Source: Candidatus Bathyarchaeota archaeon (lineage in GTDB: Archaea; Thermoproteota; Bathyarchaeia; Bathyarchaeales; Bathycorpusculaceae). From it: DNA of 64,000 nt. Location of the stretch: contig OY970280.1 of assembly GCA_963715865.1 (NCBI GenBank), positions 1,696,001 to 1,760,000 on the forward strand, written 5' to 3'. Shown here piece after piece: positions 5-45,046 of this stretch. Below the pieces are notes generated by a model. The model made no database searches, had not been told where the DNA came from, and saw only the letters and a program-made list of their open reading frames with translations. How positions within the stretch are numbered: position 1 is the stretch's first letter; each line of letters begins with the position of its first letter. The position numbers and the translations under genes were made by a program.

Positions 5-856
5 CTATGGGCTAATCGTTAATGCCCTCGCTGTCCAAGGCATACTGTTAGTGACTACTTCAGCAGGAGCCTTCTTATCCAGCTTGTTCGTGTCATACCG
101 CATCCCCGTGAAAGCATAACTATCCGTGCCAATAGTGACAGTTACGGCGTTGTCGCTATCCGCGAAGCATGCATCCAAGAAACTTTCCATTGACGCAAGG
201 TACGCAAGTTTAATGTTGCCCGTAAACGCTCTCGCTCTTGGAACAATATATTTACTGAAAGCTCCTGCAATGCCTGCTGTTGCGGGAATAACGGGGTATC
301 GCTGCAACGTATTTTTAATAGTGAAATCCCAATCACTTACTACGTCAAGTGCGCTGCTTATCGTTACGACCGTATCATACCACGCCTTCGGCGAACCTGC
401 ATCGCTCGCGTATGTTGCGCCACTCACCATTGTACGTGTGGCATCTATGCTGATAGCCTCGCATGAAATTTTTACTTCTACGTTTCCGTCAACTTTTGCA
501 CTGACCTGTGCAGAATCAACAATGCAACCACGATAACGCATATAGTAAACTGTGCTGTCGTCTGGGCTAATCATCTGATCTTCCAGCGTGAAACTTGTGC
601 GTGCTAACGCTAACTTCAGAAAAGCGCTTGTTTCATAGGTATAAGTAAACTCTATTTTAGGCTTTTTATGCCCCAAACGAATGTACGCGAGGTCAGGCGT
701 GCCAACAGCGGGAATCTTTATTGTTGCCGGGTCATGGCTGGGACTAGTCTCCGTGACTACTCCAAGCCATAAAAACGAGGGAGTCGTCGGCGTAGTACCT
801 GGAACTGTTTCCGCAATATAGTACAGCTTATGATTTGCTGCAGTGAAAATACTCAT
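5..856 (-). CDS. Major tail tube protein
   Basis: 283 aa, beta-rich, follows neck genes. GGAGG SD favours the ATG at 856 over 874. Confidence 0.7.
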   Translation of the reverse strand: MSIFTAANHKLYYIAETVPGTTPTTPSFLWLGVVTETSPSHDPATIKIPAVGTPDLAYIRLGHKKPKIEFTYTYETSAFLKLALARTSFTLEDQMISPDDSTVYYMRYRGCIVDSAQVSAKVDGNVEVKISCEAISIDATRTMVSGATYASDAGSPKAWYDTVVTISSALDVVSDWDFTIKNTLQRYPVIPATAGIAGAFSKYIVPRARAFTGNIKLAYLASMESFLDACFADSDNAVTVTIGTDSYAFTGMRYDTNKLDKKAPAEVVTNSMPWTARALTISP

Positions 857-901
857 TTTTTTTGTTTCCTCCATTTTTTATTTTTTGTACATTAAGTACC
901 G

Positions 902-15027: not shown

Positions 15028-15348
15028 TTAATAGTAAACGTCTTCATCTCTCACAATCCCGCAAACACAATGCGGATGCCAATTCACCGCGAAAGTATCC
15101 TCATCAAGCCACTCGCCATACGGAAACATATCAAGCAAGTCATCCGGGTCCTCAAGCTCAAAGAAATCTCCAGACCTGCTATCGCAATCTTCACATAAAT
15201 TAGGAGAAGGCGCCAACGCCTCTGTTACGTAACGCCAAACCGAATAGTGAATCGCAGGATTAACCACAGCGGCCTTAAATGCTGTGAAAGCGTGAAAAGC
15301 TGCCACAAGAGGCAAAACCTCATTAAGCTCTTGAACGGTAAGGCTCAA
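15028..15348 (-). CDS. Minor head morphogenesis protein (SPP1 gp7/Mu F-like C-terminal domain only)
   Basis: CEDC...HPHCVC motif, directly after the portal gene. Confidence 0.7.
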   Translation of the reverse strand: MSLTVQELNEVLPLVAAFHAFTAFKAAVVNPAIHYSVWRYVTEALAPSPNLCEDCDSRSGDFFELEDPDDLLDMFPYGEWLDEDTFAVNWHPHCVCGIVRDEDVYY

Positions 15349-16739
15349 GAGTTTTTCACTTCAGTAATCAAAAACGATTTTCCGTCTTGCTGAATCATCG
15401 CTTGCTTCTGCGTTCCTTTAGGCGCTGGAAGCATCTTAGGCTGTTGCTGATTTTGGATGGGAAGAGGCGTTTCAGGTTCAGGCGGCGTCTCTGGAAAACC
15501 AAGCTGCACTCTTGCCTCAGAAATCTGAACTATGCCAAGTTGCACTAAAGGAACCATGTAAGCCGCTTTTTCCTGCAAAGAAGCTTCCCAAATAGGCTTC
15601 CACTTAATCTCGGGAATTTCCGTACCCTCGCCAAACTGCATTTCAACAAGCTGCTTAAACAACTTCGTTTCCAAAACGTCGCTAATAAGTTCCTGTATCA
15701 TCCTGAGTCTAGTGACGTATTCTTTCATGACTGTATCGCTTGTGGCGCGGTTTGTGCCTTGAGATTCACCCATGAAGATTTTTGGCACGCCTAAGACGGC
15801 TTCGCGTTGCTTGTAGAGGTAGTCAAGCCAAAACTGCAAGTTAACCCCTGTCGTCAACGAAGGCACCACATCAACCGTAACGTCACCGCGAACGAAAGTG
15901 TCTGAGGCGACTCTGCGGTTCTGGAACGTACTCATAAGCGATGTTAATTGCGCATCGCTGAAAGGTCTCTCTGGAGTGCCTGCTTTAATGACAAGCATTG
16001 GTTTCGTGTAAGTGTGAACTATCGTTGCGAAATCGTTTTCAAACTGGTCAAGCAAAGCTTGAACCTTCAAAAGCGGACGCAGCAGCGAGGTGCCATAGCT
16101 GAATTCGTACCACCATGATTTAGCGCCCCAGCAAAACTGAACCATGTCTTGCGCAATAAACGCGACAGGAGGAAAAGTCAAAAGCTGAATGTATCCGAAG
16201 ACGTCGCCATACTCATTTCTGCGAACGCGAATATGCACGGGATCCAGCGGTTTTAGCCAACTGATCGCGCCTGTCTGTTCATCCTTGCACAGCTCCAAAT
16301 AAGCATTGCCGAAAACCAAAATGTCCGTAGCTACAATGCGAAGAGTATGCAAAATATTCTGTTCATCAAGCCAATCCGTAAGCCACTCGCGAACCGCATC
16401 ATCCCCGCCATCCAACTCGAAACCATTGCTCATAGCCAAGTTAACGGTGACATCAATCGCCGCTTTAATGTATGGGCTAAAATTGTATTGGTCCTTGTAT
16501 TTGGGCAGGTCCTCGATTGGCACGGCGCCCCAGACACGTTCCCAATAAGCCGTGTAGGGCGGAACCACGAAGCCTGCGCCACTGCCCTTAAGCATGAATT
16601 TGTTGACGTAGCCCATGAGGTTGCTGTCTTTTTCCCACGTGACAGGGATTTCTTCGCGGATTTGCTGCGTGCTAACTTGTGGCGGAACGTCACGTTGCGC
16701 GGTGAATGCGGATTTGTCTATGGTGCTTTTCAAAGGCAT
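15345..16739 (-). CDS. Portal protein
   Basis: 464 aa after TerL; FGNAYLE, LDPVHIRV, GTSLLRP, VLGVPK motifs. Confidence 0.9.
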   Translation of the reverse strand: MPLKSTIDKSAFTAQRDVPPQVSTQQIREEIPVTWEKDSNLMGYVNKFMLKGSGAGFVVPPYTAYWERVWGAVPIEDLPKYKDQYNFSPYIKAAIDVTVNLAMSNGFELDGGDDAVREWLTDWLDEQNILHTLRIVATDILVFGNAYLELCKDEQTGAISWLKPLDPVHIRVRRNEYGDVFGYIQLLTFPPVAFIAQDMVQFCWGAKSWWYEFSYGTSLLRPLLKVQALLDQFENDFATIVHTYTKPMLVIKAGTPERPFSDAQLTSLMSTFQNRRVASDTFVRGDVTVDVVPSLTTGVNLQFWLDYLYKQREAVLGVPKIFMGESQGTNRATSDTVMKEYVTRLRMIQELISDVLETKLFKQLVEMQFGEGTEIPEIKWKPIWEASLQEKAAYMVPLVQLGIVQISEARVQLGFPETPPEPETPLPIQNQQQPKMLPAPKGTQKQAMIQQDGKSFLITEVKNS

Positions 16740-16958: not shown

Positions 16959-18251
16959 TTATAACTCTCTTATGAACGCGGCGCCGACACCAGGCGGGGC
17001 TTGTCCTGTTTTAATCTGCCAAGCAGCCAAAGCTAATGTGATAACCGTATCATCATGCAGGCCTTCAGGCGCTCCGTATTGAATCAGGCCTGACGGCATA
17101 AGATTGTAAGTGAAAGATTCGAGTTCTGATTTTAAAACTGGAAACTGCTCATCTAAAGCGCTTGAGAACTCTTTTGTTGCTGGGTTGCCTGGGAACCAGA
17201 TTTCGCCATTATCCAGCATAATGCTCAAGTTTTCTATAAGCGCTTTTTTGGTTGTGTTCGTAAGTTTATAACCGCTAACCCCGCTGTATTCACGCTGTAA
17301 TTCGTCGTAGACAGGGTCGCCGACGCCTGTACTATCCACAAGTAACGGTGCATTTCCGAAGCGTCTGCAGAACGCAATTATTCTTTTCCGCTGGAAAGGC
17401 CAGTCTATTTGGTTGAAGCGTTCGTAGCCTACGACTTCGCCGTTCATGCGTAAGGCGATGTTTACGGTGAAATCCACAGTTTTGCCAAGGTCACTGCCAA
17501 CCATAATGGACTCGGTAAAACTTGGGTTATATGGTTTGATGTCGTCTCGTATGCGGTCTGCGATATGTCGGAAGACTACGCCTTCGCCTTCCAGTTCTTC
17601 CGCGTAGATTTCTTGGCGCCTAAGCAACTCGGGCATGTCATTAGCGATTGCGTCAATGTTTGCTTTGGGTAGGAACCCGCCATTTTCAGTTGCGTTGTCG
17701 TAGCTGCTTCCACGCCAACTTTTATATTCTGTTTCAGATAGGTCAAACCCTTTCGCTAATATATAACTGAACCATGTTTTACCTTTTGGCGTACCAATAA
17801 ACAAGACTGACCCATTGTAGTCCATGAGGCTTGGTTTTAACTCTGCTTCCCACCTGTTCGGTTTCAGCATAGGAGCCTCATCAATCGTTAAGTGATGCAG
17901 CCCTGAGCCACGCAGACTATCTTCTCGGTCGGCGCTATGAAAGAAGCATTCGCTTCCATTTTTAATTCGGATATAACGAATAGTTTCGTTGCTTTCGAGT
18001 TGCTTAACTATTAAGCTATGTGGTGTAAGGTCGCGAACTTTCTTTGTTGCAGGAATCAGTTCTTTGTAGAGAGGCGCTACCCACCAAGTTAAACAGTTTG
18101 GGTTTTTGAGCATAAAGATAAGGTTTTTTATCCACGCTAACTCGGTTTTTCCCCATCTTCTTCCAGCTTCAACCGTTTGGTATCGGTGATTGTCATAATA
18201 AACTTCAAGTTGCTTTGGATGCATCCGAAATGGGATGTTGACTATTGTCAA
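16959..18251 (-). CDS. terL: Terminase large subunit
   Basis: Walker A GRRWGKT, Walker B LTIDEA, GTPKG coupling motif, nuclease GSDLGK...HDD. Confidence 0.95.
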   Translation of the reverse strand: MTIVNIPFRMHPKQLEVYYDNHRYQTVEAGRRWGKTELAWIKNLIFMLKNPNCLTWWVAPLYKELIPATKKVRDLTPHSLIVKQLESNETIRYIRIKNGSECFFHSADREDSLRGSGLHHLTIDEAPMLKPNRWEAELKPSLMDYNGSVLFIGTPKGKTWFSYILAKGFDLSETEYKSWRGSSYDNATENGGFLPKANIDAIANDMPELLRRQEIYAEELEGEGVVFRHIADRIRDDIKPYNPSFTESIMVGSDLGKTVDFTVNIALRMNGEVVGYERFNQIDWPFQRKRIIAFCRRFGNAPLLVDSTGVGDPVYDELQREYSGVSGYKLTNTTKKALIENLSIMLDNGEIWFPGNPATKEFSSALDEQFPVLKSELESFTYNLMPSGLIQYGAPEGLHDDTVITLALAAWQIKTGQAPPGVGAAFIREL

Positions 18252-21968: not shown

Positions 21969-23654
21969 TCAAGAAACCTCCTTGAATTTGACGCCCTGCG
22001 CTAGGCAGTAGTAGTTGCGGTCTGTGTGCTTCTTGGCGATCAGGTCCTGCTTTTCTAAATCGTTAAGCGCATTATTGACTTCCTGAGGAGTAGCATTCCA
22101 ACGCTCATCCTGGATAGCTTTCACAATATCGTCCAAGCGGCGCCACGTATCCAACTTGCCTTTCCTGGCGACCTCGAGGATTTTTCCACGCATATTCTCA
22201 GTGTTGATAACTACGAGTTTCTCAGTTGCCTGCACATCCACGATAGTTGTCGAAGCCTGCAGCCCAACCGTAGCGGCGCCTTCAGATGGTTGGCTACTTG
22301 AGGGTAATACAGCAGGTAAATTCTTAGCCAACTCTTCAACTCGAGTAATATTATCATAGATGTTCTGGACATTCAAGGCTAAGCGAAGAGCAATCTTGAG
22401 ATTATCGTAATCCTTCAGCTCCTGATCCTTCGCCTCGAGGCGCTTCTCCAGATCAAACTTCACTTCACCAAGAAACTTTAGCCGCTGCTGCACGGAATCC
22501 GCTAATTTACGGCCAGAACGAAACTCCTCAATCTCGATGCGTAACGCATCAACTTCAGCCTGGAGGATCTTAAGTTGTTGTGCATCAACATTGTTTATCG
22601 ATGCATCTACTGGTGCAGGTGTCGATGAAGGCTCAAGCATCTCTTTTACTGAGAGCTTAATCTGAGCCGATTTTTCAGCATCCTCTAGCTTTTTCTGTGT
22701 CTCACGCAACAGCCGCTTAGTCTTCTCTAAGTCAGATTCTTCAGTGCGTTCTTTTTCAAGTGCCGCCATGATTGATTTTGCGAGTTCATCAACAGTCTGC
22801 TTAACTTCGCTCGCACGTGGAGCAACATATTCCAAGCTAGGAGTATCGGCGCCATGCTTAGTTAGGCGTTTTTCCGTCACCGTCACAAATTGGCTTTGGC
22901 TGCCAAGAACCACAAACCACTCGCCCTTCCCAAACCGCGTCAATTGCTCAGCCCGAATCTCCACGCCATTCTTACGCACAGTATCCAAAACCTCTTTGTC
23001 CAGGTACTTGGTGTCGTGGCTAGCGAATTTGCCGTAAAAAGTCACATTCGCAAGCTGCCGAATCGTAAAATTAACTTCCTGCGGCCTCTGACTGCTCTCA
23101 ACGGTGATAATGTTAAGCTTCCTACCCTGCGTACTGCAATCCTTGAAAGCCTTAATCATCCGATTATAAACCCATGGAGGCGCAATGTGCCCAGCCGTAG
23201 AATTCGGCAAGTACTCCTGAGATTCTTCTGGGAGAATCATTAACGGCCTATGATGCGTCTCCTGCAACTTCATTATCGCATGCAGAAAACGCGAAACCCA
23301 ATCAACAAGCTTAGCTTCATCTTCGACGTCGGAAGTGTAGAAAATCATAGAAATGCCATTTTCAACCACGGCCTTCGCATACGTCAATGGCGCCGTCAAA
23401 GCAAAATCCACATCCTTCGCGTGCACGCCGCCGACGCTGAGAATATCAAACTTTTCTTTGAGCGTAAAGTATTCGTCTCGCGGCTGGAAAATAACGACAG
23501 TACCGCCCTGCAACAGAAACTGCTCAATCATCAAAGCATTATTGAAGGACTTACCAGATCCAGGACCACCAAAATTCGCAATGCGCAAGCCTTCACGACA
23601 GAACGGCTCTGCATCACTATCAATTACAAGGTTTTCACTAAAACGAAACTTCAA
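21969..23654 (-). CDS. HerA/DUF87-like ATPase with coiled coil and C-terminal wHTH
   Basis: Walker A GGPGSGKS, Walker B ILPEESQE, SSQRPQ motif. Confidence 0.85.
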   Translation of the reverse strand: MKFRFSENLVIDSDAEPFCREGLRIANFGGPGSGKSFNNALMIEQFLLQGGTVVIFQPRDEYFTLKEKFDILSVGGVHAKDVDFALTAPLTYAKAVVENGISMIFYTSDVEDEAKLVDWVSRFLHAIMKLQETHHRPLMILPEESQEYLPNSTAGHIAPPWVYNRMIKAFKDCSTQGRKLNIITVESSQRPQEVNFTIRQLANVTFYGKFASHDTKYLDKEVLDTVRKNGVEIRAEQLTRFGKGEWFVVLGSQSQFVTVTEKRLTKHGADTPSLEYVAPRASEVKQTVDELAKSIMAALEKERTEESDLEKTKRLLRETQKKLEDAEKSAQIKLSVKEMLEPSSTPAPVDASINNVDAQQLKILQAEVDALRIEIEEFRSGRKLADSVQQRLKFLGEVKFDLEKRLEAKDQELKDYDNLKIALRLALNVQNIYDNITRVEELAKNLPAVLPSSSQPSEGAATVGLQASTTIVDVQATEKLVVINTENMRGKILEVARKGKLDTWRRLDDIVKAIQDERWNATPQEVNNALNDLEKQDLIAKKHTDRNYYCLAQGVKFKEVS

Positions 23655-23803
23655 GAAATAACCTCCGAGTGTTTTTTCAATCGCATGTTATGCCCAGGCT
23701 TAAACCTCAAAATATGATCACCTGAACGCTGAGGCACAGGCTCACCACAACCGCAAAGACAAGTACGCAGAACCCTATGCTTAGGTTTCTTAGGCTGACT
23801 CAA
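23651..23803 (-). CDS. 50-aa CxCGCG zinc-binding protein
   Basis: MSQPKKPKHRVLRTCLCGCGE...FKPGH; GGAGG SD and TTG start. Confidence 0.65.
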   Translation of the reverse strand: MSQPKKPKHRVLRTCLCGCGEPVPQRSGDHILRFKPGHNMRLKKHSEVIS

Positions 23804-23879
23804 CAAAAAGCCTCCAAATCGCTCAAGCTACAAACAATCATGAAGGAAACGCAAAAAACTACAGAAAAAGAGGAAGGTA

Positions 23880-23924
23880 TGCGGGAGACATCGCCACTTC
23901 CTAGAGGATAATTACTTATCCTCT
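23880..23924. other. Candidate attR: conserved arm motif plus palindromic core
   Basis: TGCGGGAGACATCGCCACT (17/19 to 44318-44336) followed by AGAGGATAA-TTAC-TTATCCTCT. Confidence 0.55.
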
Positions 23925-24099
23925 GTTTTCCGCATTTATACCCATAAAGCAAGAGCCTTTTTTGAATTAACTTGAGAAACCCTGTTAAAGTGTCGTTTCG
24001 TTAAAAAATAATTTGGTAATTTTTGGTTATGCTAAAACCTAATTACTTCCCTGCCACAATTAATCTTTAAATCATGGCTTAGCAGGCTGGAGGCATGGC

Positions 24100-25056
24100 T
24101 TGGGCAAACTAAAATTTGGGGTATTCCTTCCATTCTACGCGTTCAAAGCTAAAGAGCCCAAGGAACATTTCAGTCTTATTCGAGATGTTGTTTTGGAATG
24201 TGAACACTTAGGCTACCATTCAGTTTGGCTGGATGACCATTTGATGCATAATGATTGGCCTATCCTTGAATGCTGGACGACTCTCTCCGCGCTCTCTTCT
24301 TTAACCAGTAGGATACGGTTGGGAACAATGGTTTCCTGCACCGCACACAGGAATCCTGCTTTGCTTGCCAAGATGGCTGCTACGCTTGACGTCCTATCTA
24401 AGGGCAGGTTAGAGCTTGGCATCGGAGCAGGCACCCAGGAAACGGAGCATGTTGCTTATGGTTTTGGTTTTCCTAAACCAAGCGTCAGAATAGAGCGTTT
24501 AAGCGAGGCTTTGGAAGTAATAAGGCGACTGTGGACAGAAGAAAAAGCAAACTATCAAGGAAAACACTACACATTAAAAGATGCCGTTTGCGAACCTAAA
24601 CCCTTGCAGAAACCTCATCCACCAATAACTGTGGGTGGAAGCGGCGAAAAACTGATGCTGAAAGCGACCGCTCGGTATGCTGACAGGTTTGATTGGGGTT
24701 TCTTGCCATCCATTGAAGTGTATAAGCGTAAACTTGAGGTTTTAGAGAACAATTGCAAAGCAGTTGGCAGAAACTTCACGGAAATTCAGAAGTCCTGCTG
24801 GCCCGGTGGCCAAGTGCTAATTGCGCAGGACAAAAGAGAACTGAGCGAAAAGATTTCCCAGCGAAAACCAGCAAATGTTAGCTTAGAAGACTTCAAGAAG
24901 ACTGCTTTGGCTGGCACTCCGGATGAGTGCAGGGCGCAGTTGCAGGTTTACGTGGATTTGGGTGTGATTTATTTTATGTTGTTTTTCGCTGACTTACCAA
25001 GTTTAGACGGGGTGAGACTGTTTGCTGAAGCTGTTGTCAATAAAATGGGCGGTTAG
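24100..25056 (+). CDS. LLM-class F420-dependent oxidoreductase
   Basis: WLDDHL, RNPALLAKMAATLD, GRLELGIGAG motifs. Confidence 0.92.
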   Translation: MGKLKFGVFLPFYAFKAKEPKEHFSLIRDVVLECEHLGYHSVWLDDHLMHNDWPILECWTTLSALSSLTSRIRLGTMVSCTAHRNPALLAKMAATLDVLSKGRLELGIGAGTQETEHVAYGFGFPKPSVRIERLSEALEVIRRLWTEEKANYQGKHYTLKDAVCEPKPLQKPHPPITVGGSGEKLMLKATARYADRFDWGFLPSIEVYKRKLEVLENNCKAVGRNFTEIQKSCWPGGQVLIAQDKRELSEKISQRKPANVSLEDFKKTALAGTPDECRAQLQVYVDLGVIYFMLFFADLPSLDGVRLFAEAVVNKMGG

Positions 25057-35488: not shown

Positions 35489-35562
35489 GGGCCGGTAGTT
35501 CAGCTGGTATGAACGCTTGACTTGCACTCAAGAGGTCGGGGGTTCAAATCCCCCCCGGTCCA
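35489..35562 (+). tRNA. tRNA-Ala (TGC)
   Basis: Complete cloverleaf, G3:U70 pair, A73, no intron, CCA not encoded. Confidence 0.97.
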
Positions 35563-35665
35563 CTTCAAAATTGTTTTCAAATTCTTGCGAAGAAGAGGTA
35601 GCAGTCGAAGCATAATAACCCGTGAAGCATTTAAGCAACCCTAAAAAAATCGACCCTGCGCGCTG

Positions 35666-35784
35666 TTCAGATCATTGGAGGCCAACTGGCAAGAGAATAC
35701 CGTGCTCATCGCAAAACAGCACACACGTAACCGGTGGATTTCTTACACTGCGCTACCAACGGTAAGACCAATGATAGATCTGAA
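35666..35784. ncRNA. Candidate structured RNA
   Basis: 13-bp closing stem TTCAGATCATTGG/CCAATGAT(AGAT)CTGAA enclosing ACCGT/ACGGT and smaller hairpins. Confidence 0.35.
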
Positions 35785-35876
35785 GGATCAAAGAAGCGTA
35801 TATATCCTTCAACTTAGATTGCTCTGAGCTTGTTTTAAATACTTAAACGCTCCAATTAATATGTGGGGAAGGAATA

Positions 35877-36077
35877 GTGTTGGAAGTACAACATGTGTGC
35901 TTCAATGAGTTCCCCGATCAATGCGTAGGATGCCCAGAATACAGTGAAACAAGGCAAGATCAGGCAACGCAACTCATATTGCTTACAGGGATGGGGATGA
36001 TGTACCCGCCATACGCGAAAAAAATCGTCAAAGAATGCAAGCGGTATCACAAGCGCAAAGTTGAATATCTGAGGTAG
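35877..36077 (+). CDS. Hypothetical Cys-containing protein, 66 aa
   Basis: ORF track; GGGGAAGGA purine tract upstream. Confidence 0.4.
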   Translation: MLEVQHVCFNEFPDQCVGCPEYSETRQDQATQLILLTGMGMMYPPYAKKIVKECKRYHKRKVEYLR

Positions 36078-36421
36078 AAAGAAGCTCAGCGCAACCCCGT
36101 ATAAGCAACCATAGAATAGACAAAGTTGAATGCGGAAACTAAGTATCGGGGAAAAGTCTCGATTTCTATGCCACTTCTTAGATTGCGCTAAAAATAGCTA
36201 AATGAATGCTGGGTGAATTATCATATGAGTCGCACTTTTTAGAGCCGCTTTTCTTGGTTTGGATTTATCAGCGCTCGCCTCCTCTCTAGTCATAAGATTT
36301 GTCCTTGAGAATCGATTCGTAGTCTTACTTATAGAAAAGAACAGAAAAAGAAAACACAGAAAAGCTCACCACTGGCACGAGTTCAAATCTTTGTCACTCT
36401 TAGAAGATGAAAAAAACAAAA

Positions 36422-36481
36422 AATAGGGGAATTGCGGGTGACATCTCCATTGTAGGCGGGGTTCAAATCCCCCCCGGTCCA
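36422..36481 (+). repeat. att-like repeat R1 (arm motif plus 24-bp tRNA-Ala 3' end)
   Basis: 36458-36481 identical to 35539-35562. Confidence 0.92.
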
Positions 36482-36671
36482 TTGTGCGGCTTGAACCCAA
36501 CACGGTTCAAATCCCATAGAGACTAGAACTATTTTGGGTTCAGAACTGATTAGATTCAAGATGTACATTTCAAGTTCCGGGTTTTTCCACTTGTCCTAAT
36601 CGCTTGTTAAGCAAAGCTTTATTCGTTGTTCCACTCATAAATTCTGTTATCACATTCATGGAGGCGAATTC

Positions 36672-36842
36672 ATGGCAAAATGTAAAACATGCGGAACAGA
36701 AGCTGCTTCACCGAGGAAGAAATGGGTTATGGCAGGTAGAGCCGACAAAACAGGAAAGAAAACCCAGTTGGAAATTGGACTTTTCGACTGCGCAAAATGC
36801 AAAAAAACCTTCCGCGCTACCCTAAGCAAAAAGAAGATCTAA
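36672..36842 (+). CDS. Cren7-like chromatin protein with two CxxC pairs
   Basis: MAKCKTCG...KKWVMAGR...EIGLFDCAKCKKTFR resembles Cren7 (KVW...KIGLF...KYFR); GGAGG SD. Confidence 0.72.
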   Translation: MAKCKTCGTEAASPRKKWVMAGRADKTGKKTQLEIGLFDCAKCKKTFRATLSKKKI

Positions 36843-36923
36843 GACTGCTTGAAACTGACAGCACATCAAATCACTCCGTCTTAACTTTAAGAATCCATTT
36901 TCCTTTAGGATTGCCGTCTAAAT

Positions 36924-37097
36924 CTACCCCCTGCCCTTTAACACTTTAAATTCGCCCTGTTTCAAACCCAAATTTTGCATGGCGTATTCTGTTGCTTCTT
37001 TAATCGTACAGAATCCAGCTGGTTTCTTTGCCTCGGTCTTAGTAAATCCCCATTCTGGCGGAACTAAACTGTCTATCTGCAAAACTCTTAATCTCAT
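36924..37097 (-). CDS. Hypothetical protein, 57 aa
   Basis: Strong GGAGGTGA SD; MRLRVLQIDSLVPPEWGF... Confidence 0.6.
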   Translation of the reverse strand: MRLRVLQIDSLVPPEWGFTKTEAKKPAGFCTIKEATEYAMQNLGLKQGEFKVLKGRG

Positions 37098-37353
37098 TCC
37101 TCTCTCACCTCCTCAAGGAAAATAGCGAAATATTCTTTGACGCGACCGTCTCGTTACTTGATGTCTTCGCTCCAGCCATTATAGAATGGAAATCGCTGTT
37201 AAAGCTTGCTTATCCCCCTAAAAAGTCTCCTTCAAGCCAATTTTATGTATCAGAGAAAAATAGGGAACGCGCGGGAAGCTTCTATACACTGGCAACGTAA
37301 GGCTTTTGTGAAGGGTATTTAGGCATCCGCTACACTATAAGAAGCGATGTTTA

Positions 37354-37914
37354 ATGCCGAAGACTAAAGCCATAATAAACATTCAGAACGTTGTTGCTTC
37401 GGCCACTTTAAATCAGAAAGTTGACTTAAACGCGATTGCGAAGAGTTATCCAACCGCAGAATATCGTCCGGACCAGTTTCCCGGATTAGTGTTTAGGCTT
37501 AAGAGACCGAAGACGGCTACGTTGATTTTTGGCTCTGGTAAAATGGTTTGTACAGGAGCAAAATCGGGAAAGGAATCCCGCAGAGCAATCATGAAAGTTG
37601 TTAAAGAACTAAAAAAGAATGGAATAATCATTATTAGCAAGCCGGACTTGAAGGTTGTGAACATCGTTGCTTCTGCAAGTCTAGGCGGAAAGGTAGATTT
37701 GGAGGAGACAGTTTCCACGCTTAGAAACACGATGTATGAGCCGGAGCAGTTTCCAGGCTTGGTCTACAGGATGGACGAGCCTAAGGTGGTCATGCTGATA
37801 TTTGCAAGCGGGAGCCTTGTTTGTGCCGGCGCGAATAAAGAACAGGACGTTTATGACGCAGTGCATAAGCTTCATGAAATATTGGAGGAACAAAACCTCA
37901 TATTCTACGAATAA
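37354..37914 (+). CDS. tbp: TATA-box-binding protein
   Basis: Two repeats NVVAS...YxPxQFPGLVxR...LIFxSG. Confidence 0.97.
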   Translation: MPKTKAIINIQNVVASATLNQKVDLNAIAKSYPTAEYRPDQFPGLVFRLKRPKTATLIFGSGKMVCTGAKSGKESRRAIMKVVKELKKNGIIIISKPDLKVVNIVASASLGGKVDLEETVSTLRNTMYEPEQFPGLVYRMDEPKVVMLIFASGSLVCAGANKEQDVYDAVHKLHEILEEQNLIFYE

Positions 37915-38055
37915 AACTTCATATGTTAATCGCCTTCGTTTGTGCATTCCTTATCGTAGTAAAGCAGAACACGCTTGTACCCGAAAACAATGGAAAGTGA
38001 ACATATGCCTGATCTAACTCATAATACTTTTAAGAGCAAATACGCGCGCAAATCG

Positions 38056-38709
38056 TTAAGCCTCCACAGCGGGTGAATCCGTTGGAGTAATTTGTGATTC
38101 GAAGTCTTCGACGTTGGTGAGGAGTCCTCTTGTTCCAATGCTTAATTGCCTTTCCCCTCTGAAGAGAGAGGCTCGAGCGTTCTCAATTCGAACTGTATCC
38201 CCCACGGAGACACAGCCTATCTGCTCATTCCACAAACAAAGTCTGATAGTTCCCGTCTCATCCCCAATCACTGCTTTAGACACGCTTGCATAGTTGCCAT
38301 ACCTAGTAATAACACGCCTTGGTTCTGCAACCTCCAAGATTTTAGCCTTCAAACTAACGTGGTTCATCCCAGACCGCACATCTCTGATGGAGCGACCCTG
38401 GGCCTTACGCCTCTTCCTAGAAAGATATCTAAGAATCGTGTCGGTTTCCAAGAATTTTCCAAGCGGATTATTTCTCTCCAACAGAAACTCTTCAGGGACC
38501 CGAAATTGCGCAAGGACTCCAACATCATTGGTCATCAAAAAGATTTTTTTTGCGTTTATCTCACCGCGGCACTCGATTGAAATGGGGCCACAGCTGGATT
38601 TCCTGTTTTCTCCAGCTTTGACCAGTGCGCTAAAAAACTCTTCAGGGTCAACTTCATGTTTTACTGAAAGAAAAGCAAGATATGGCCCCATTGACCGTTT
38701 ATGTCTCAA
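38056..38709 (-). CDS. OB-fold single-stranded DNA-binding (RPA/SSB-like) protein with N-terminal extension
   Basis: IGDETGTIRLCLW...GDTVRIENA...GERQLSIG. Confidence 0.85.
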   Translation of the reverse strand: MRHKRSMGPYLAFLSVKHEVDPEEFFSALVKAGENRKSSCGPISIECRGEINAKKIFLMTNDVGVLAQFRVPEEFLLERNNPLGKFLETDTILRYLSRKRRKAQGRSIRDVRSGMNHVSLKAKILEVAEPRRVITRYGNYASVSKAVIGDETGTIRLCLWNEQIGCVSVGDTVRIENARASLFRGERQLSIGTRGLLTNVEDFESQITPTDSPAVEA

Positions 38710-38749
38710 GGTTCTTCATCCTTTTCACTTTTCATAATGCGAGATAATT

Positions 38750-38990
38750 ATGCTCTCTCAACCAGTCTGACCCGTTTCGTCTATACCGCCAAGTGATTTC
38801 GTCTTGCTCGTCCGTCGGAGAGCATTCAGGTTTTGGCTCCAAACAAGCAAAGGGATAGGATGGCAAAGAACGCTCGAACCGTATTCGAGGCAAATGAAGT
38901 GGCGCGTCTAGATCAGAGAAAGCGACGTCGTCTTGGTTTTTCCACGGGATTTTCAATCGGACAGCAGAAGACCAAAACACGCCGCGCCTT
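38750..38990 (-). ncRNA. Candidate structured leader RNA upstream of the SSB gene
   Basis: Several stems plus mutually exclusive pairings of TGCTC (local GAGCA versus distal GAGAGCAT). Confidence 0.4.
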
Positions 38991-39026
38991 AATGGTTACA
39001 TAGCGCTCATATTTCGCAAGGTATTC

Positions 39027-39314
39027 CTACTCTTTTGTAAGCATTATTTCAATCGTTGAAACCATCCGCGCTCTAGTTTCGCCCTCTCTCGGCGGCATCT
39101 CCTCTGTTCCTATCGCGATTTTGCTTACTTTCAGGTCTTTTAGGAAGCGGTTTCTCGCTATTTCAGCTGCGTCAACAGCTGTAGTTATTGCTTTTCCTCT
39201 GGCCTTCAAGGTTATACCTTTAGCATTGCTCGCCGATAGGCCTGTAATTATCGCTAGAACATAGTCCATTGGCATTTTACTTCCAACGAAAACAATTCCC
39301 GATTTTTCAACCAT
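39027..39314 (-). CDS. albA: Second Alba paralogue
   Basis: Close paralogue of 32175-32465; same TTTATAAGGAAG promoter core. Confidence 0.95.
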   Translation of the reverse strand: MVEKSGIVFVGSKMPMDYVLAIITGLSASNAKGITLKARGKAITTAVDAAEIARNRFLKDLKVSKIAIGTEEMPPREGETRARMVSTIEIMLTKE

Positions 39315-40285
39315 TTTTCATCACCATTTAATCATAACGCTACTCCCCTATACTACGCAACCTTCCTTATAAAGCGATTAAACAACAGAGCATCCTGAGG
39401 ATGTTTCAGTGCGGCTCCCTTATCTTAGATTCTGGTTTTAGACACGGCACGCACATTGTGGATTTGTTTGATAAGCGTGTTTTGGCTGTGTTTAAGGAAT
39501 AAAAACCATTTACACCAATTTAGCAACGCGTGGCACGCTTCAGTATTCTTCCTTCTTCCAGATGTTGTATGGGCACTGTCTCCAACAGTATGTGCTTGCC
39601 TTGTAAATACAATTCTCACATTCGAGCCTGTCAAACCACCGTCTACGTCTGCTCACTGGCAGCGCCCTCCATACTCTTCTATACTGCCTTCCTCATTAAG
39701 TCTTGGATTGCGCCAGTTATTCCGTCAGGATAAAATGTATTCATAACCTTCTGAACGAACCCTCTTCAGGTAGAAGCTTATAGCCTCTTTTGTACATGAA
39801 ATTGTCCGAGAAGCATTTTGCCAAACGCGAGTGCACGTATGCCTGTTCCGAAATTGGAAAAAATTGTTTCCATTCGTGGGATTAAAAGGCAGCTTTTGGC
39901 TTCGTATCTGGTTTTAATTTCCTTGGAGAAACCGTCCTTCCCAAACTTGCAAAAGAATCCGAGAACGAAATTAAAACCACTTTTAGCCATTTAGGAACAA
40001 TCATCCGCGCTTTAACTGCAAAGTATAAAGTTAGAAACCTTGCATTTAGTAATTTATTCTACATTAGTGGAATAATGTAGAACCAGTAAAATCCTTGGAA
40101 GATAACCATTATACAGAAGGCGAAATCATGGGCGATCACCGATGCGAGAATTGCGGGAAGGTAGAAAATTCTAGTTGAGCGCTGGGATGATATAGGAGAT
40201 GGCTTCGGCGAATCAAGAAAAGCGCGGTTCTAATTCACAAAGCGTATATCCATGATAGTTGTAATTTATGCAGAAAGGTTTCGAT

Positions 40286-40579
40286 ATGAGACGGTCCAAG
40301 CTTGAAATGTACGTGGATATCCTTAAGGTTCTTGCGTAGCGTGGTCCATTGAAGCTAACTCACATAATGTACAAGGCTAACGTGAACTGCAAAGTGCTGA
40401 AGGAATACTTAGACTTCCTAGTCGGTCACGGCTTGGTTGAAGAAAGAATTGTGGGGAAGCGAAGAGTGGTTTACGCAACTACTCAGCGCGGCGTAACGGT
40501 TCTGAAATACTTCAGAGAACTGGAACAAGTGCTTCCTATAGTGGAAGAAGCCAGAAACGGCATGTTTGTTCCTTTTTGA
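40286..40579 (+). pseudogene. HTH_45-like winged-helix regulator with in-frame TAG at codon 18
   Basis: MRRSKLEMYVDILKVLA*RGPLKLTHIMYKANVN... Confidence 0.8.
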
Positions 40580-40673
40580 CTTCCGTCTAAGTAAAGCGTG
40601 CACGCAAAGTTGTGGCTTTTTTGTTGGCTCTTGTTTTAGGAGGATTTTTCAGTTAAGGGTTCCGCCCCCTTTT

Positions 40674-40700
40674 GGGTTCAAATCCCCCCCGGCCCCACCA
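40674..40700 (+). repeat. tRNA 3'-end-like repeat R2
   Basis: GGGTTCAAATCCCCCCCGGCCCCACCA. Confidence 0.7.
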
Positions 40701-41124
40701 CAACAATCCAAACCCAATTCGCGGATCATATTATTTGGTGCTTTCTGAACAATTTGACCACCTTAAATTCGTATATGAACTCAAAATCAGCATCTATTTA
40801 GGTCCAGATGCTTTCTTTTTGTTTCTTGCTTTTGTCGGGAAATAATAGGGGCTTTTTCCACTGGAAATTGCACACTATTAGTTGGCGTAATCCTTTTTTC
40901 ATTCTTTTTATTGTAGCGAAATCTTTAGCCAAGAAGTTTGAGCAGACTGGCGTAAGTTTGACGGCGTCAATGGAATAATCTGAAGACGATATGTGAATCA
41001 TTTAGAGATAGTTTTCATTTCATCTTAATTATTATTTTGGGTCATGATTTCGGGGTCATAATTGTTTTATTAATTTAACGTCACAAAGGAGTAATATATT
41101 TAGGAAAGATATGGTTGGAATTAT

Positions 41125-42423
41125 ATGCGGATTGGATTCTTCGTTTGGGAGTATCCTCCTTCAATTGTTGGAGGTCTGGGCACTTACGCGGAAAACATAA
41201 CGCGTGAATATGTTTCTATGGGGCATGATGTAACCCTTTTTACGCTCAATCCCGGCAACTTAAAAACAAGAGAAGTTATAAGGGGCGTAGAAGTTCATAG
41301 ACCACTTATTTCGGATGCAAGTAATGTTTTTCCAATGTTTGTAGTGGATGACTTAAAAAAATGGGGAACAAACATCCGCATGTTCAATGACATTTTCACC
41401 TACAACATTTTGAGTGCATCAAAATTCATAAACAGCATGCTGAAAAAGGAAAACTGCAATTTCGACGTCGTTTGCGTGCACGACTGGCTAAGCAGTATAG
41501 CTGGGATTATGGTTAAGAACGAAACGAAAATCCCAGTTGCGTTTCATGTCCATAGTACAGAATGGGGAAGAAGCGGAGGGTCAGGTTCTGGAGTTGTTTC
41601 TCATTTTGAATGGGCAACAGCTGAAAAAGCAGACAGAATCTTGACTGTGAGTCATGCTATGAGGGAAGATTTAGTGAAGCACGGTTGGTCAAGTTCTAAA
41701 ATAAGCGTTGTTTGGAATGGCGTAGATAGCGAACGATACAATTTAAAGAAATGCAAGACTGAAGAGATAGAAGCTATTCGAGAAAGATACGGCATCAAAT
41801 CAGACGAAAAAATGATACTCTTTTTAGGTAGGCTAACGTGGGTGAAAGGGGTCATGAACCTCGTTCAGGCGATGCCTATGATCTTGGCTGAATATCCAAA
41901 AGCAAAACTAGTAATTTTGGGCAAAGGAGAACAACAAAATGACATCATTGAAACCGCACGTAGACTTGGAATAGCAAAAAACGTCGTTTGCAGATTTGAT
42001 TTTGTGCCAGAAAAAGATCGTATCCTACATTACGCTGCATCTGACTTGTGTATCTTTCCTTCAACATATGAACCCTTTGGCATAGTGAGCCTAGAAGCTA
42101 TGTCAATGGAAAAGCCAATAGTTGTGGGTGCCCACGGCGTGGTCGGCTTCAGAGAACAAGTCATGCCCGATGGTCCTGACAAAAATGGTGTACACGTAAA
42201 TGGGGAGAGCCCAAGCGATATCGCATGGGGGATAAAAGAAATATTGTGTGACGATAACAGGGCTAAACAATGGGGCAAAAACGGAAGAAAACGGGTTTTA
42301 CAATATTTCCAGTGGAGAAAAGTTGCAGAACAAACGTTGCAAATATACGAGCGACTCCAGCGCCCAGATGAACAAGATGAACAGGTAACTTTCGGATTAG
42401 TTGAAAAACCATTTGTCTCATAA
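41125..42423 (+). CDS. GT4 glycosyltransferase (glycogen synthase-like)
   Basis: EYPP..VGGLG, HDWLS, EPFGIVSLEAM. Confidence 0.9.
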   Translation: MRIGFFVWEYPPSIVGGLGTYAENITREYVSMGHDVTLFTLNPGNLKTREVIRGVEVHRPLISDASNVFPMFVVDDLKKWGTNIRMFNDIFTYNILSASKFINSMLKKENCNFDVVCVHDWLSSIAGIMVKNETKIPVAFHVHSTEWGRSGGSGSGVVSHFEWATAEKADRILTVSHAMREDLVKHGWSSSKISVVWNGVDSERYNLKKCKTEEIEAIRERYGIKSDEKMILFLGRLTWVKGVMNLVQAMPMILAEYPKAKLVILGKGEQQNDIIETARRLGIAKNVVCRFDFVPEKDRILHYAASDLCIFPSTYEPFGIVSLEAMSMEKPIVVGAHGVVGFREQVMPDGPDKNGVHVNGESPSDIAWGIKEILCDDNRAKQWGKNGRKRVLQYFQWRKVAEQTLQIYERLQRPDEQDEQVTFGLVEKPFVS

Positions 42424-42846
42424 GTGTCTTCCCGTTTCTGCTTATCCAAATCAAACAAGCATGCGTGTTCACTTTTCCCTTTTCCAAGGTTGCCCCGAAC
42501 AGAAGCGCGTCTTCAATCTGAGCCCAAATTGTAACCATGACAACTCATTGTCCAACGGAACCAATTTAACATATGCAAATCCAAAGCAGAAAAAATGCAG
42601 ATTTCACGGATTTTTTCCCGAAAGGCAAAACCCCGCCCTTCCCGCCTCAACTCCAGTTGTTCCCCAAAAAAATAACTAAAATTCGAGCACTTCACGTTTT
42701 CTGCCCTACTGCACTAGATGCACAAGTTGCAAACAACCATTCCAAATCTCATAACATGGAGGAAGAATTTCTAATCCATATTTGGCATTCACAAATCTAA
42801 TTTATTTCCATAAGTTCTTAGATATGATTGATAATGGGCGATAAAA

Positions 42847-43800
42847 ATGCACAGTAGTCTTAGGCAGGAGCGCAAAACAGCGCTACAATTGGATGAAACG
42901 CCCGCTGTTGTTAAAGCAACGGCTGATACTAGAGAGTCTTTCTGCAAGATGCTTGGGGAAGCTATTGACGAGGCATTTTCTTCTCTAGGTGAACCTACAA
43001 GAAAAGCAATATACATTCATCTGAAAAACTCGTTTGGGATTGCGAAGCGCGAAATTCCGTACAGGATCAATGATTTTTCAGATGCGCTCGAGAAAATTTT
43101 TGGACCAAGCGCCAGAAACCTGGAGATTATCTGTATAAAAAACATTCAAGCCAAAGCTAGAATTGACTACAAGTGGGATTTGCCCGAATCGAGTGGGTCC
43201 GAATTGACGTTTGAAGAATACATACGCATCGTTAAGCAGAACTATAAACAGCAAGAAAGCTATCAACGAGCGGAATCAAAGAGTAGCTCCGCCGAGAAAA
43301 AACGGGTAACTCCAGTGGCTCAAGAAAAAACAGATGAAAACAAAGTTACGTTAAAGGCTGTTAACGTGATGGTCAAGAAAGTAATTACGGTAGATGAAAA
43401 AGCGTCGGTCAAAGAAGCAGCTGACACAATGAATCAGTTCGAGATAGGCTCCGTAATTACCACCAGAAAAGGGGAGCCTATAGGCATAATTACTGAGCGA
43501 GACCTTTTGAAACGCATAGTCTCCGAGGGCAGAAACGTAAAAAAGACTAGAGTTAAAGAAATTATGTCAAGTCCATTGGTCGTTATTTCACCCAACACAG
43601 ACTTAGAAGAAGCGGCACGCTTGATGTTCGAGATGAAGATAAAGAAGCTGCCAGTAACCGAACAGAACCGCTTGGTGGGCTTGGTCAGTCTAACAGACAT
43701 AGCCCGCGCTCAGCCGATGATAAAATTCCTGCAAAAACTTGCCGCGACGCAATATACGCCGAAAAGCATACAGAAAGTCTTAAATTGCTACATTGTTTAG
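42847..43800 (+). CDS. NitrOD5/DUF3227-like domain fused to a CBS pair
   Basis: EAIDEAFSSLG...IPYRINDFSDALEKIFG, then two CBS motifs. Confidence 0.75.
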   Translation: MHSSLRQERKTALQLDETPAVVKATADTRESFCKMLGEAIDEAFSSLGEPTRKAIYIHLKNSFGIAKREIPYRINDFSDALEKIFGPSARNLEIICIKNIQAKARIDYKWDLPESSGSELTFEEYIRIVKQNYKQQESYQRAESKSSSAEKKRVTPVAQEKTDENKVTLKAVNVMVKKVITVDEKASVKEAADTMNQFEIGSVITTRKGEPIGIITERDLLKRIVSEGRNVKKTRVKEIMSSPLVVISPNTDLEEAARLMFEMKIKKLPVTEQNRLVGLVSLTDIARAQPMIKFLQKLAATQYTPKSIQKVLNCYIV

Positions 43801-43849
43801 CGCAATGCAATTGTTAGTGCCCCAGCCCGCTGAGGAAGCGCGCGCTCTT

Positions 43850-44170
43850 CTATTGGTTCACCCTTCGCCAGCGAAGTTGAACCTGTACTCTCTTGATGTA
43901 GCCCTGTTTTTCCAAGGAAATTAGACTGCGGTGAACTGAAGTATATTCCTTTGATTTGTACTCTATGATTTTGCCAAAAATCATCTCGGCAATTTCCTTG
44001 GTTGCCATGTCAGGTTTTATCTTTAGCATTTCCAAAATTCTTTTTTGGTTTTTAGAGAGACCAGCCAAATTCTGCAGCACGCTCTTGAGAGCTTCAATTG
44101 TTTTGTCAAAATTTAAATCTTTAACGCGCACTATAACTGCAGTTCTGATGGCTAGAATATAACAAAACAT
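43850..44170 (-). CDS. Winged-helix protein
   Basis: KRILEMLK...KEIAEMI...VHRSLISLEKQGYI. Confidence 0.65.
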   Translation of the reverse strand: MFCYILAIRTAVIVRVKDLNFDKTIEALKSVLQNLAGLSKNQKRILEMLKIKPDMATKEIAEMIFGKIIEYKSKEYTSVHRSLISLEKQGYIKRVQVQLRWRRVNQ

Positions 44171-44310
44171 GAAATATATACGAAGCGCGCATGGTATTGT
44201 GCAAATCCCTTAACGAAATAAATATTTAACTTCGCGCTTGCACCTTAATTAAGGGCACCCGCTACTCGGATAAAAATTCATGCAAATCCAATAGGACCCA
44301 ACAAAAAAAT

Positions 44311-44372
44311 GGGGATTTGCGGGTGACATCTCCACTGTAGACGGGGTTCAAATCTCGCCCGGTCCACTTCAA
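44311..44372 (+). repeat. att-like repeat R3
   Basis: Shares about 55 bp with R1 and CCACTTCAA with the tRNA flank. Confidence 0.9.
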
Positions 44373-44467
44373 CAACACCAGTAATCTAGTAAGAATTCAT
44401 GATGTTGTCAATTTTCAAATGCGTTCCAATCCTGTAACAAGGCTTTAGTAACCGTTTATCCATAACA

Positions 44468-44698
44468 TTGTCTGGTGATGTGGTGAAATTCGGTGTTGTA
44501 GTCGAAAAAGATGAAGATGGCTATTATGTTGCGTCCGTTCCCGAGTTGCCCGGTTGCCACACCCAAGCTAAAACTCTTGATGAAGTAATGAAGAGAATTA
44601 AAGAGGCCATTCAACTTTGCTTGGAAGTCGAAGGAACGAAAGGCAAGGGACGGAACGAACTCGTGGGAGTCCAGTTTGTAGAAGTTCAAGCTGAATGA
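44468..44698 (+). CDS. hicB: HicB-family antitoxin
   Basis: YVASVPELPGCHTQAKTLDE. Confidence 0.92.
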   Translation: MSGDVVKFGVVVEKDEDGYYVASVPELPGCHTQAKTLDEVMKRIKEAIQLCLEVEGTKGKGRNELVGVQFVEVQAE

Positions 44699-44924
44699 GC
44701 TTAAAGCCTCAACCAGCTAAGAAAATAATTAAAGTGCTCTCCAAGTTGGGTTTTGAAGTTGTAAGAAAACGAGGCAGTCATGTTATCCTGAAGCATGCTG
44801 ATGGAAGGCTGACTGTGGTTCCAGTTCATGCAGGAGAGGAAAAGGCTCTGGGCTGCTAAATAAGATAATTAAGGACACGGGACTATCGAAAGAGGAATTC
44901 ATCAAGTTATTAGAAACTGCCTGA
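44695..44924 (+). pseudogene. hicA: HicA-family toxin, 1-nt deletion near 44842
   Basis: RKRGSHVIL...VVPVH then a frame switch to GSGLLNKIIKDTGLS. Confidence 0.85.
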
Positions 44925-44967
44925 CTGACTCAAATTCAACTTGTTACACTTTTGCATCCAGACATGA

Positions 44968-45046
44968 AAAAATTGAATCCGCGGAGGTAATCTCCGCTTG
45001 CGTGGGGGGCTCAAATCCTCCCGGTTCACTTCAACATTATTTTCAA
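44968..45046 (+). repeat. att-like repeat R4 (outer island boundary)
   Basis: GCGGAG-GTAAT-CTCCGC hairpin, degenerate T-arm/acceptor, 45027-45046 matches 35561-35580 at 18/20. Confidence 0.8.

Follow-up and report, generated by a model that had tools for sequence, protein, structure and literature searches.

The window analysed in this study is a stretch of 64,000 nucleotides, corresponding to positions 1696001-1760000 of a single 2.35-Mb contig of a Candidatus Bathyarchaeota genome (G000). Its left-hand part is occupied by one end of a head-tail provirus (provirus A), whose large genes are all encoded on the minus strand and whose remainder lies to the left of the window, at genome positions 1680102-1696000 (Table 1). 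The host genes start at position 24100 with a luciferase-like monooxygenase gene, followed by ilvD and leuA, leaving a 445-bp gap between virus and host in which the 19-mer that is the subject of this study is located. A 51-aa Cys-rich ORF (CLCGCG...; 23651-23806, minus strand) was observed between the module that surrounds the 19-mer and the HerA/MCM-like gene, and its stop overlaps the start of that gene. Further to the right, positions 35489-45034 hold an island at a tRNA-Ala gene, which is a stack of blocks that each end in a copy of the module and a copy of the tRNA 3' end, without an integrase.

Table 1. Features of the provirus end, the tRNA-Ala island and the other complete elements. 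Positions refer to the window unless marked as genome positions.
Feature	Position	Strand	Remark
Provirus A, head-tail, 39,820 bp; right-hand 23.9 kb	1-23907	-	Delimited by direct repeat and empty site
Tail tube gene, provirus A	5-874	-	
Portal gene, provirus A	15345-16739	-	
Large terminase gene, provirus A	16959-18251	-	
HerA/MCM-like ATPase (helicase) gene, 561 aa	21969-23654	-	First large gene inside the provirus right end
Purine run AGAAAAAGAGGAAGG, A run then G-rich run	23863-23877	+	Part of conserved module
19-mer TGCGGGAGACATCGCCACT	23880-23898	+	Family consensus GCGGGnGAyATCnCCA inside, at 23881-23896
Near-palindrome GGAGAC/ATCGCC	23884-23895	+	Within the 19-mer
22-bp palindrome AGAGGATAA-TTAC-TTATCCTCT	23903-23924	.	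Hybrid attR core site: left arm viral, centre shared, outer right arm from host
Crossover repeat ATAATTACTTATCC, 14 bp, attR copy	23908-23921	+	Exact repeat
Host flank B' up to luciferase-like monooxygenase gene (24100-25056)	23922-24099	+	
tRNA-Ala(TGC), island anchor	35489-35563	+	
R1: A run, GCGGGTGACATCTCCA and 24-nt copy of tRNA-Ala 3' end	36415-36481	+	
R3: A run, GCGGGTGACATCTCCA and decaying tRNA-Ala 3' copy	44300-44366	+	
R4: decayed module GCGGAGGTAATCTCC (44981-44995, 13/15) and decayed tRNA-Ala 3' copy	44981-45034	+	Fourth tRNA-Ala fragment
Integrase gene, provirus A	genome 1680079-1681436	-	Left end; ORF runs into attL
Second G000 provirus, head-tail, 36,073 bp	genome 563805-599891		Repeat ATCTTCCATTTAGA at 563805 and 599878
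G018:C22 element, 17.6 kb			Repeat TTATTAGTCTCGAA
G016:C88 element, 14 kb, in tRNA-Leu(TAG)			Variant module
G013 element, 32.8 kb, in tRNA-Ala			Shortened word GCGGGGAAACTCCA alone, about 65 nt from tRNA copy

The 19-mer at the virus-host boundary is identical at 17 of 19 positions to the copy in R3 (44318-44336) and at 16 of 19 to the copy in R1 (36433-36451), and a purine or A run lies ahead of each of the three copies (23880, 36433, and 44318). In R3, 14 nt separate the end of the 19-mer from the T-loop centre (44336 to 44350), whilst at the provirus end there are 15.5 nt from position 23898 to the centre of the 22-bp palindrome at 23913.5. The copies, match scores, preceding runs and distances reported in an earlier sequence-only reading of this DNA were thus confirmed. 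Allowing up to three mismatches, the window contains four matches to the 19-mer, where 0.01 would be expected from the shuffled window, and none of 100 shuffled windows reached four; the fourth match (7971, minus strand, three mismatches) looks like a chance occurrence.

The 19-mer forms the centre of a module of approximately 40 bp, in which a purine run (A6-8 G3-5) is followed after 3-5 nt by GCGG fused to the near-palindrome GGnGAyATCnCCA; on the minus strand, the purine run of the provirus copy (23863-23877) reads as an oligo-T/pyrimidine run. Across 73 aligned module copies, positions -15 to -9 of the purine-run profile are A and positions -7 to -4 are G, and these positions played no part in finding the copies. 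The copies were retrieved through the motif itself, so that conservation within the 15-mer is partly ascertainment. The conserved positions follow a palindromic pattern, with the degenerate positions symmetrically placed, and in the canonical form of the module it is position 3 (G) of the 16-mer that disrupts a 14-bp palindrome. What canonical and variant modules have in common are two inverted half-sites, TGGnGAT/ATCnCCA.

The palindrome that follows the 19-mer contains the attR core site of provirus A, as the sequence-only reading had proposed, and the analysis supports this through a second copy of its core and through an empty site. The core site reads GGATAA-TTAC-TTATCC, an inverted repeat around a short central overlap. 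Its 14-bp sequence ATAATTACTTATCC recurs at genome positions 1680088-1680101, 39,820 bp to the left of the attR copy at genome position 1719908. This attL copy immediately follows a Zn-ribbon tyrosine integrase gene and has the host ferredoxin/leuB genes on one side and the first virus-side gene on the other. A second copy of the palindrome, predicted to lie leftward next to an integrase, was therefore found for 14 of the 22 bases, comprising the centre and right arm. The palindrome in its entirety was rejected as the direct repeat, as it is unique in the genome and just 14 bp are duplicated; the repeated part is the inner 14 of the 22 bases, with the outer left arm being viral and the outer right arm being host sequence. 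Provirus A is thus flanked by leuB/ferredoxin on the left and by the luciferase-like gene, ilvD and leuA on the right, and its attB is intergenic.

The empty site was found in the closest relative sampled, a sister species (G018) with 85% DNA identity at the neighbouring gene. Its intact attB runs from leuB and ferredoxin through ...ttttatgaatt ATAATTACTTATCC tctggttttt... to an MFS transporter gene and the luciferase-like gene, and the core has on its left the sequence found left of the attL copy and on its right that found right of the attR copy (B + core + B'). The blastn breakpoints between the two genomes coincide exactly with the 14-mer. The 19-mer, which sits 9 bp before the core in attR, is missing from this attB and is therefore viral sequence belonging to the P arm. 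Next to attR, at window positions 23938-24028, the MFS-type transporter gene is absent from G000, while it encodes 484 aa in G018 and is present there in most relatives, which looks like a host-side deletion right beside attR. The same attB has been used in other relatives, with a 2.35-kb remnant in G015 that holds both cores, the module, and a C-terminal integrase fragment, an 8.5-kb remnant with a 16-bp repeat in G012, and a retained attL scar in G010. The C-terminal residues ...GISNYNS (stop), whose codons lie in the core and the host flank, are shared by at least a dozen metagenomic integrase clusters. The minus-strand TATAAA noted just outside the palindrome does exist (TTTATA at 23935-23940), but the suggestion that recombination there could swap the early promoter found no support, with attB reading GTAAAC at this position in G018 and ATAAAC in G015, and with no tie to transcription found.

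The integrase of provirus A is encoded in three overlapping ORFs (131 + 226 + 134 aa) and carries the box FRHWGG...LLRHK...KYVH. Intact homologues are approximately 450 aa long, one of which (P0001) is 96% identical, and the gene in G000 therefore contains two frameshifts, which are either true decay or assembly errors. A scan of the genome with PF00589 missed this integrase, and it was recovered by reading the ORF at attL. The family to which it belongs comprises 166 matches at E ≤1e-5 among longer proteins, and the few members that bear an organism name are from Bathyarchaeia. Its members share an N-terminal four-Cys Zn ribbon, a KxxR...H...Y box, and an additional C-terminal beta-alpha-beta-beta domain (residues 387-428) that ends in YRKPKRF, whilst the tail after residue ∼430 is predicted to be disordered and is not conserved. 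The predicted fold (mean pLDDT 67; 80-95 in the catalytic domain) is that of a tyrosine recombinase according to Foldseek, with XerA (5hxy; E 1.6e-8) as a match and further matches to IntI, P2 Int, Cre, and lambda Int.

In the alignment, the catalytic-box residues K282, K343-x-x-R346, H370, and Y379 are invariant. The Arg I position (TGxRxxE box) is occupied by Asp in all 18 aligned integrases (ETFADPSE; D258 of P0001, followed by Pro); the many independent integrations at the same site indicate that these integrases are active despite this substitution. Within the Zn ribbon (residues 30-70), C32, C35, C61, C64, R48, Q57, R58, and F68 are invariant, and the ribbon shows weak, sub-threshold matches to the DNA-binding Zn ribbon of InsA. 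Matches to PF00589 were mostly below threshold and confined to the C-terminal half, and PF16795 (Phage_integr_3) gave no match at E up to 1 in four family members.

All of the complete elements delimited have a family integrase at their left end, on the opposite strand and with its 3' end towards attL. In three of them, provirus A, a second provirus of the same genome, and an element of the sister species (G018:C22), the canonical module lies 8-11 bp before the right repeat, and each has a different non-tRNA core. The second provirus is collinear with and related to provirus A, carries an intact Zn-ribbon integrase of 433 aa, and ends on the right 1 nt ahead of the ATG of a DinB/Dpo4-like gene; the portal gene of this provirus is apparently split (208 + 267 aa). 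A variant form is found in the G016 element and in several other tRNA-Leu copies, which have the purine run, then GCGGAAAGAAACCC, and then a perfect 14-bp palindrome, TGGCGATATCGCCA, located 10 nt before the T arm. This perfect palindrome was found at 24 sites in 15 genomes, compared to 3 control sites.

Of the 28 tRNA-type copies, 22 have the centre of the motif palindrome 22.5 bp away from that of the T loop, and in 5 this distance is 21.5 bp; most non-tRNA inverted-repeat cores have their centre 23.5-24.5 bp from the palindrome centre, with 24 bp between the two palindrome centres in attR of provirus A. The inverted-repeat cores found were tRNA T arms, TGTTC-N4-GAACA, AGACT-TATT-AGTCT, and GGATAA-TTAC-TTATCC. 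Unintegrated attP forms were also recovered, in which integrase, core, motif, and T run follow each other in that order on one strand, with the next same-strand genes beginning 45-70 nt past the T run. The module is therefore present in attP and attR and not in attB and attL, and its orientation and its spacing to the crossover centre are fixed for one integrase family that uses differing cores. The claim that virus and island share a single integration system, in which the accessory site is conserved while the cores differ, is supported with respect to this architecture (module, integrase family, and spacing), beyond which the accessory site would be bound by a protein.

The module is not confined to the window. 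Its core GCGGGnGAnATCnCC, at no more than one mismatch, has 23 copies in G000, all of which are intergenic and have AAAAGAAAAAGAGGG-like purines and a 3-8 nt spacer in front. The exact 16-mer GCGGGnGAnATCnCCA was found in 23 of the 41 genomes searched (G000 and 40 relatives), representing 12 of 16 genera, with 0 to 17 copies among the relatives and 0 matches for the reversed control pattern. A tRNA T arm and 3' end follow the module in 28 of the 73 aligned copies and derive from various tRNAs (Ala, Leu, Cys, and others); in the copies without a tRNA part, other inverted repeats or decayed sequence come next. In G000, most copies are orphans that have no integrase nearby and sit among genes such as those for ApbA, FrhB, a PAS kinase, KatG, and a Na/H exchanger, and an all-against-all ORF comparison of the surroundings of the 23 copies revealed no common gene family and no regulator gene. 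Many genomes have family integrases without the exact motif, and in the G013 element the word is shortened and more distant, which suggests that the accessory site may not be obligatory. In a scan of IMG/VR with an 18-mer, 26 loci were recovered, 2 of which (L016 and L024) have a family-like context, and a complete attP was not found at either of these.

One non-tRNA core, GGTATGTTCCnCCGAACAGTAG (TGTTC-N4-GAACA), recurs after the module at genome positions 648038, 1209963, 1841256, and 2241738, and also in relatives (G015:C5 at about 355.6 kb and 360.7 kb; G018:C9 at 2576). These cores are often followed, 87-106 nt downstream, by a second module that has a tRNA fragment, giving tandem pairs, and neither an intact target nor a left-hand copy of this core was found in G000. 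A tRNA-Gly integrase (896 kb) and the motif at 887763 were considered as a single element, and this was rejected as the fragment after the motif is not the 3' end of tRNA-Gly(GCC).

In the tRNA-Ala island, further T-loop-like fragments flank R1 (agttcaaatc at 36380 and cggttcaaatccc at 36505), which suggests additional, older integration scars in the stack. A smaller arrangement of a similar kind was observed at genome positions 476806-478480, where tRNA-Cys and a module with a tRNA-Cys 3' copy enclose a lone ketopantoate-reductase (ApbA) gene, so that the block consists of one gene and no integrase. The possibility that the copies are tRNA 3' halves or parts of tRNAs with introns was rejected, given that ARAGORN, run with introns, found no gene at these sites, that the T arms decay (R3 and R4), and that the upstream DNA is not tRNA-like. 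It is conceivable, if rather unlikely, that the module is a shared cis-acting signature, and that such integrase-less blocks of module and target copy can be mobilised in trans by a resident Zn-ribbon integrase. If this were the case, the tRNA-Ala stack (TBP, SSB, a glycosyltransferase, and a CBS protein), the tRNA-Cys ApbA block, and the KatG and Na/H exchanger blocks would be candidate trans-mobilised cassettes, forming an archaeal equivalent of integron cassettes or CIMEs in which the accessory site is shared and the cores can be exchanged, and exchange of the integrase tail in the provirus subfamily might provide directionality.

The conservation of the module could have other causes. The motif could be conserved as coding sequence, with the integrase ORF spanning core and motif so that integration swaps the C-terminal tail, in a mild form of the "suicidal" behaviour of SSV-type integrases. 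The integrated ORF of provirus A does pass attL and ends in ...TIGISNY/NS (stop), and in the free form it would read on through PLG-SGDVSR-IPSSFSVVF... into a hydrophobic tail, just as three database homologues continue with ...GCGDVSR..., ...PSGDVSR..., and ...RGGDVSR..., their DNA having the core, motif, and T run inside the ORF. All 23 copies in G000 give [SGNTD]GD[VIFL][STA]R in the integrase frame, and the tRNA T loop always gives DLNP. The integrase of the second G000 provirus and those next to tRNA-Ala, -Leu, -Phe, -Cys, and -His, however, stop 30-60 nt before the core, and the tail that would be exchanged, beyond residue 430, is the predicted disordered and unconserved part of the protein. 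Between G000 and G010, the tail before the core has 1 synonymous and 6 non-synonymous changes. The DNA itself also behaves in ways that a reading frame would not explain, in that the purine run is conserved in varying frames, due to the varying spacer, that the base after CC is invariant although it falls at a third codon position and the two preceding bases of its codon vary freely, and that the palindrome gives G-D-[IV]-[ST] on both strands. Palindromic conservation with symmetric degenerate positions is not predicted by coding, whereas it is predicted for the site of a dimeric DNA-binding protein. Conservation of the motif is therefore independent of translation, and coding as its cause is improbable. 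Coding on the plus strand (A-G-D-I-S-T) or a leader peptide was likewise rejected, since the motif lacks a start codon and has stops on either side.

The main rival is that the module is a transcription signal, either a terminator of the integrase gene (oligo-T) or an operator for a dimeric regulator of early genes, and although this is considered unlikely it deserves more weight than coding. Oligo-T is an established archaeal termination signal, and the integrase strand reads integrase, core, palindrome, CCCC, and T5-8, with same-strand genes 45-70 nt past the T run in the attP contigs and the 51-aa ORF and helicase gene in the window; palindromes are, moreover, typical of operators. The spacing, on the other hand, is fixed to the crossover centre, while neighbouring genes lie anywhere from 24 to 375 nt away, and the neighbourhoods have no regulator gene in common. 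A terminator would fall inside the ORF in the subfamily that reads through, and the palindrome is kept between elements whose early genes are unrelated, and also in variant modules that have the purine run 20-30 nt away. A further reading takes the module as a small repeat, either selfish and MITE-like or a regulatory word of the host, that merely shares intergenic spaces with integration scars, and this agrees with the orphan status of most G000 copies among ordinary metabolic genes and with the copy number of 0 to 17 among relatives. It is nevertheless a very remote prospect, given that the module lacks terminal inverted repeats or target duplications of its own, that neither its orientation nor its distance to the right-hand repeat changes among the complete elements examined, that it is absent from the empty attB and present beside the integrase in unintegrated viral attP, and that the motif and the adjoining tRNA fragment decay jointly in R4. 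An RNA or DNA hairpin was rejected, as two degenerate positions of the palindrome are non-complementary in most copies and do not covary, and searches of window positions 23000-46000 with Rfam models, at E up to 1, gave the tRNA-Ala gene as the sole match.

The module is thus probably an arm-type-like accessory protein site on the P-arm flank of attP and attR of viral and other integrative elements, used by a tyrosine integrase family found throughout Bathyarchaeia; that a protein binds it, which protein this is, and how recombination is affected are what we infer. Strand exchange must take place inside the 14-bp crossover repeat, around the TTAC centre of the inverted repeat, with integrase protomers probably occupying the two inverted core arms. 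The palindrome of the module, 22-24 bp or about two helical turns from the crossover centre, may then be bound by a dimeric protein. The best candidates for this role would be the strongly conserved Zn-ribbon domains of two integrase protomers, which are put forward because of their invariant Cys, Arg, Gln, and Phe residues and their weak likeness to the InsA ribbon. The adjoining A tract may bend the arm or, as oligo-T, may end transcription of the integrase gene in the free element. Such a module would tell element sites from host sites, whilst the variable core would set the target. Counting against an accessory site is that there is one site, on one arm, abutting the core, unlike the classic sets of arm-type sites.

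An accessory word that is conserved order-wide beside at least five different cores would provide the first indication that archaeal attP sites can be bipartite, composed of a constant helper site and a variable target site. Archaeal integrases have been described as needing no essential helper factors (PMC8371274). No description of an arm-type site for archaeal integrases was found in that review of archaeal recombinases, and the motif is mentioned neither there nor in the literature on Bathyarchaeia viruses and proviruses that was examined. The orientation of the module and its distance of 8-11 bp to the repeat allow the right-hand ends of proviruses and islands to be marked precisely in Bathyarchaeia genomes, where boundaries are otherwise hard to call, and in this analysis it located a second complete provirus and several remnants. 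The compact set of integrase, attP, and attB, with 14-bp cores, could additionally serve as a candidate genetic tool for an uncultured lineage.

The system resembles lambda-type integrases in that the element site has a conserved, putative protein-binding sequence beside the core that the host sites lack, in that the integrase has a separate N-terminal domain in addition to core-binding and catalytic domains, and in that insertion occurs at inverted repeats, tRNA T arms among them, and leaves direct repeats behind. It differs in having one palindrome, on the P arm only and 8-11 bp from the repeat, where lambda-type systems have several dispersed arm sites on both arms; no further palindrome was seen in roughly 120 bases of P' sequence after attL. 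The N-terminal domain is also a Zn ribbon and not the lambda arm-binding fold, and no sites or genes for IHF, Xis, or Fis were recognised in this integration system.

With the SSV-type (type I) integrases of SSV1, pTN3, and pT26-2 (PMC8371274), the family shares its archaeal origin, the K-x-x-R...Y box, and tRNA-derived att sites that are read antisense within or next to the integrase gene, with attP inside the ORF in the provirus subfamily. Unlike in SSV-type elements, however, the crossover is at the extreme 3' tail, past the folded domains, so that a disordered tail is exchanged and the integrase stays whole. Many family members stop before the core, PF16795, the domain of SSV-type integrases (PMC8371274), was undetected in the four members searched, and a Zn ribbon and a C-terminal domain are added. 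Classical type II (pNOB8/SNJ2-type) integrases are similar in that the integrase remains intact beside attL and that the direct repeats are short and often at tRNA 3' ends, but matches to PF00589 are mostly sub-threshold here and no comparable att-adjacent module is described for the classical type in the literature examined. Finally, the tRNA-Ala island, as an integrase-less stack flanked by att sites, is comparable to CIME-like tandem islands anchored at tRNA genes, and differs from such remnants in that its boundary word is tied to a defined family of integrases and, within the same genome, to proviruses that are intact.
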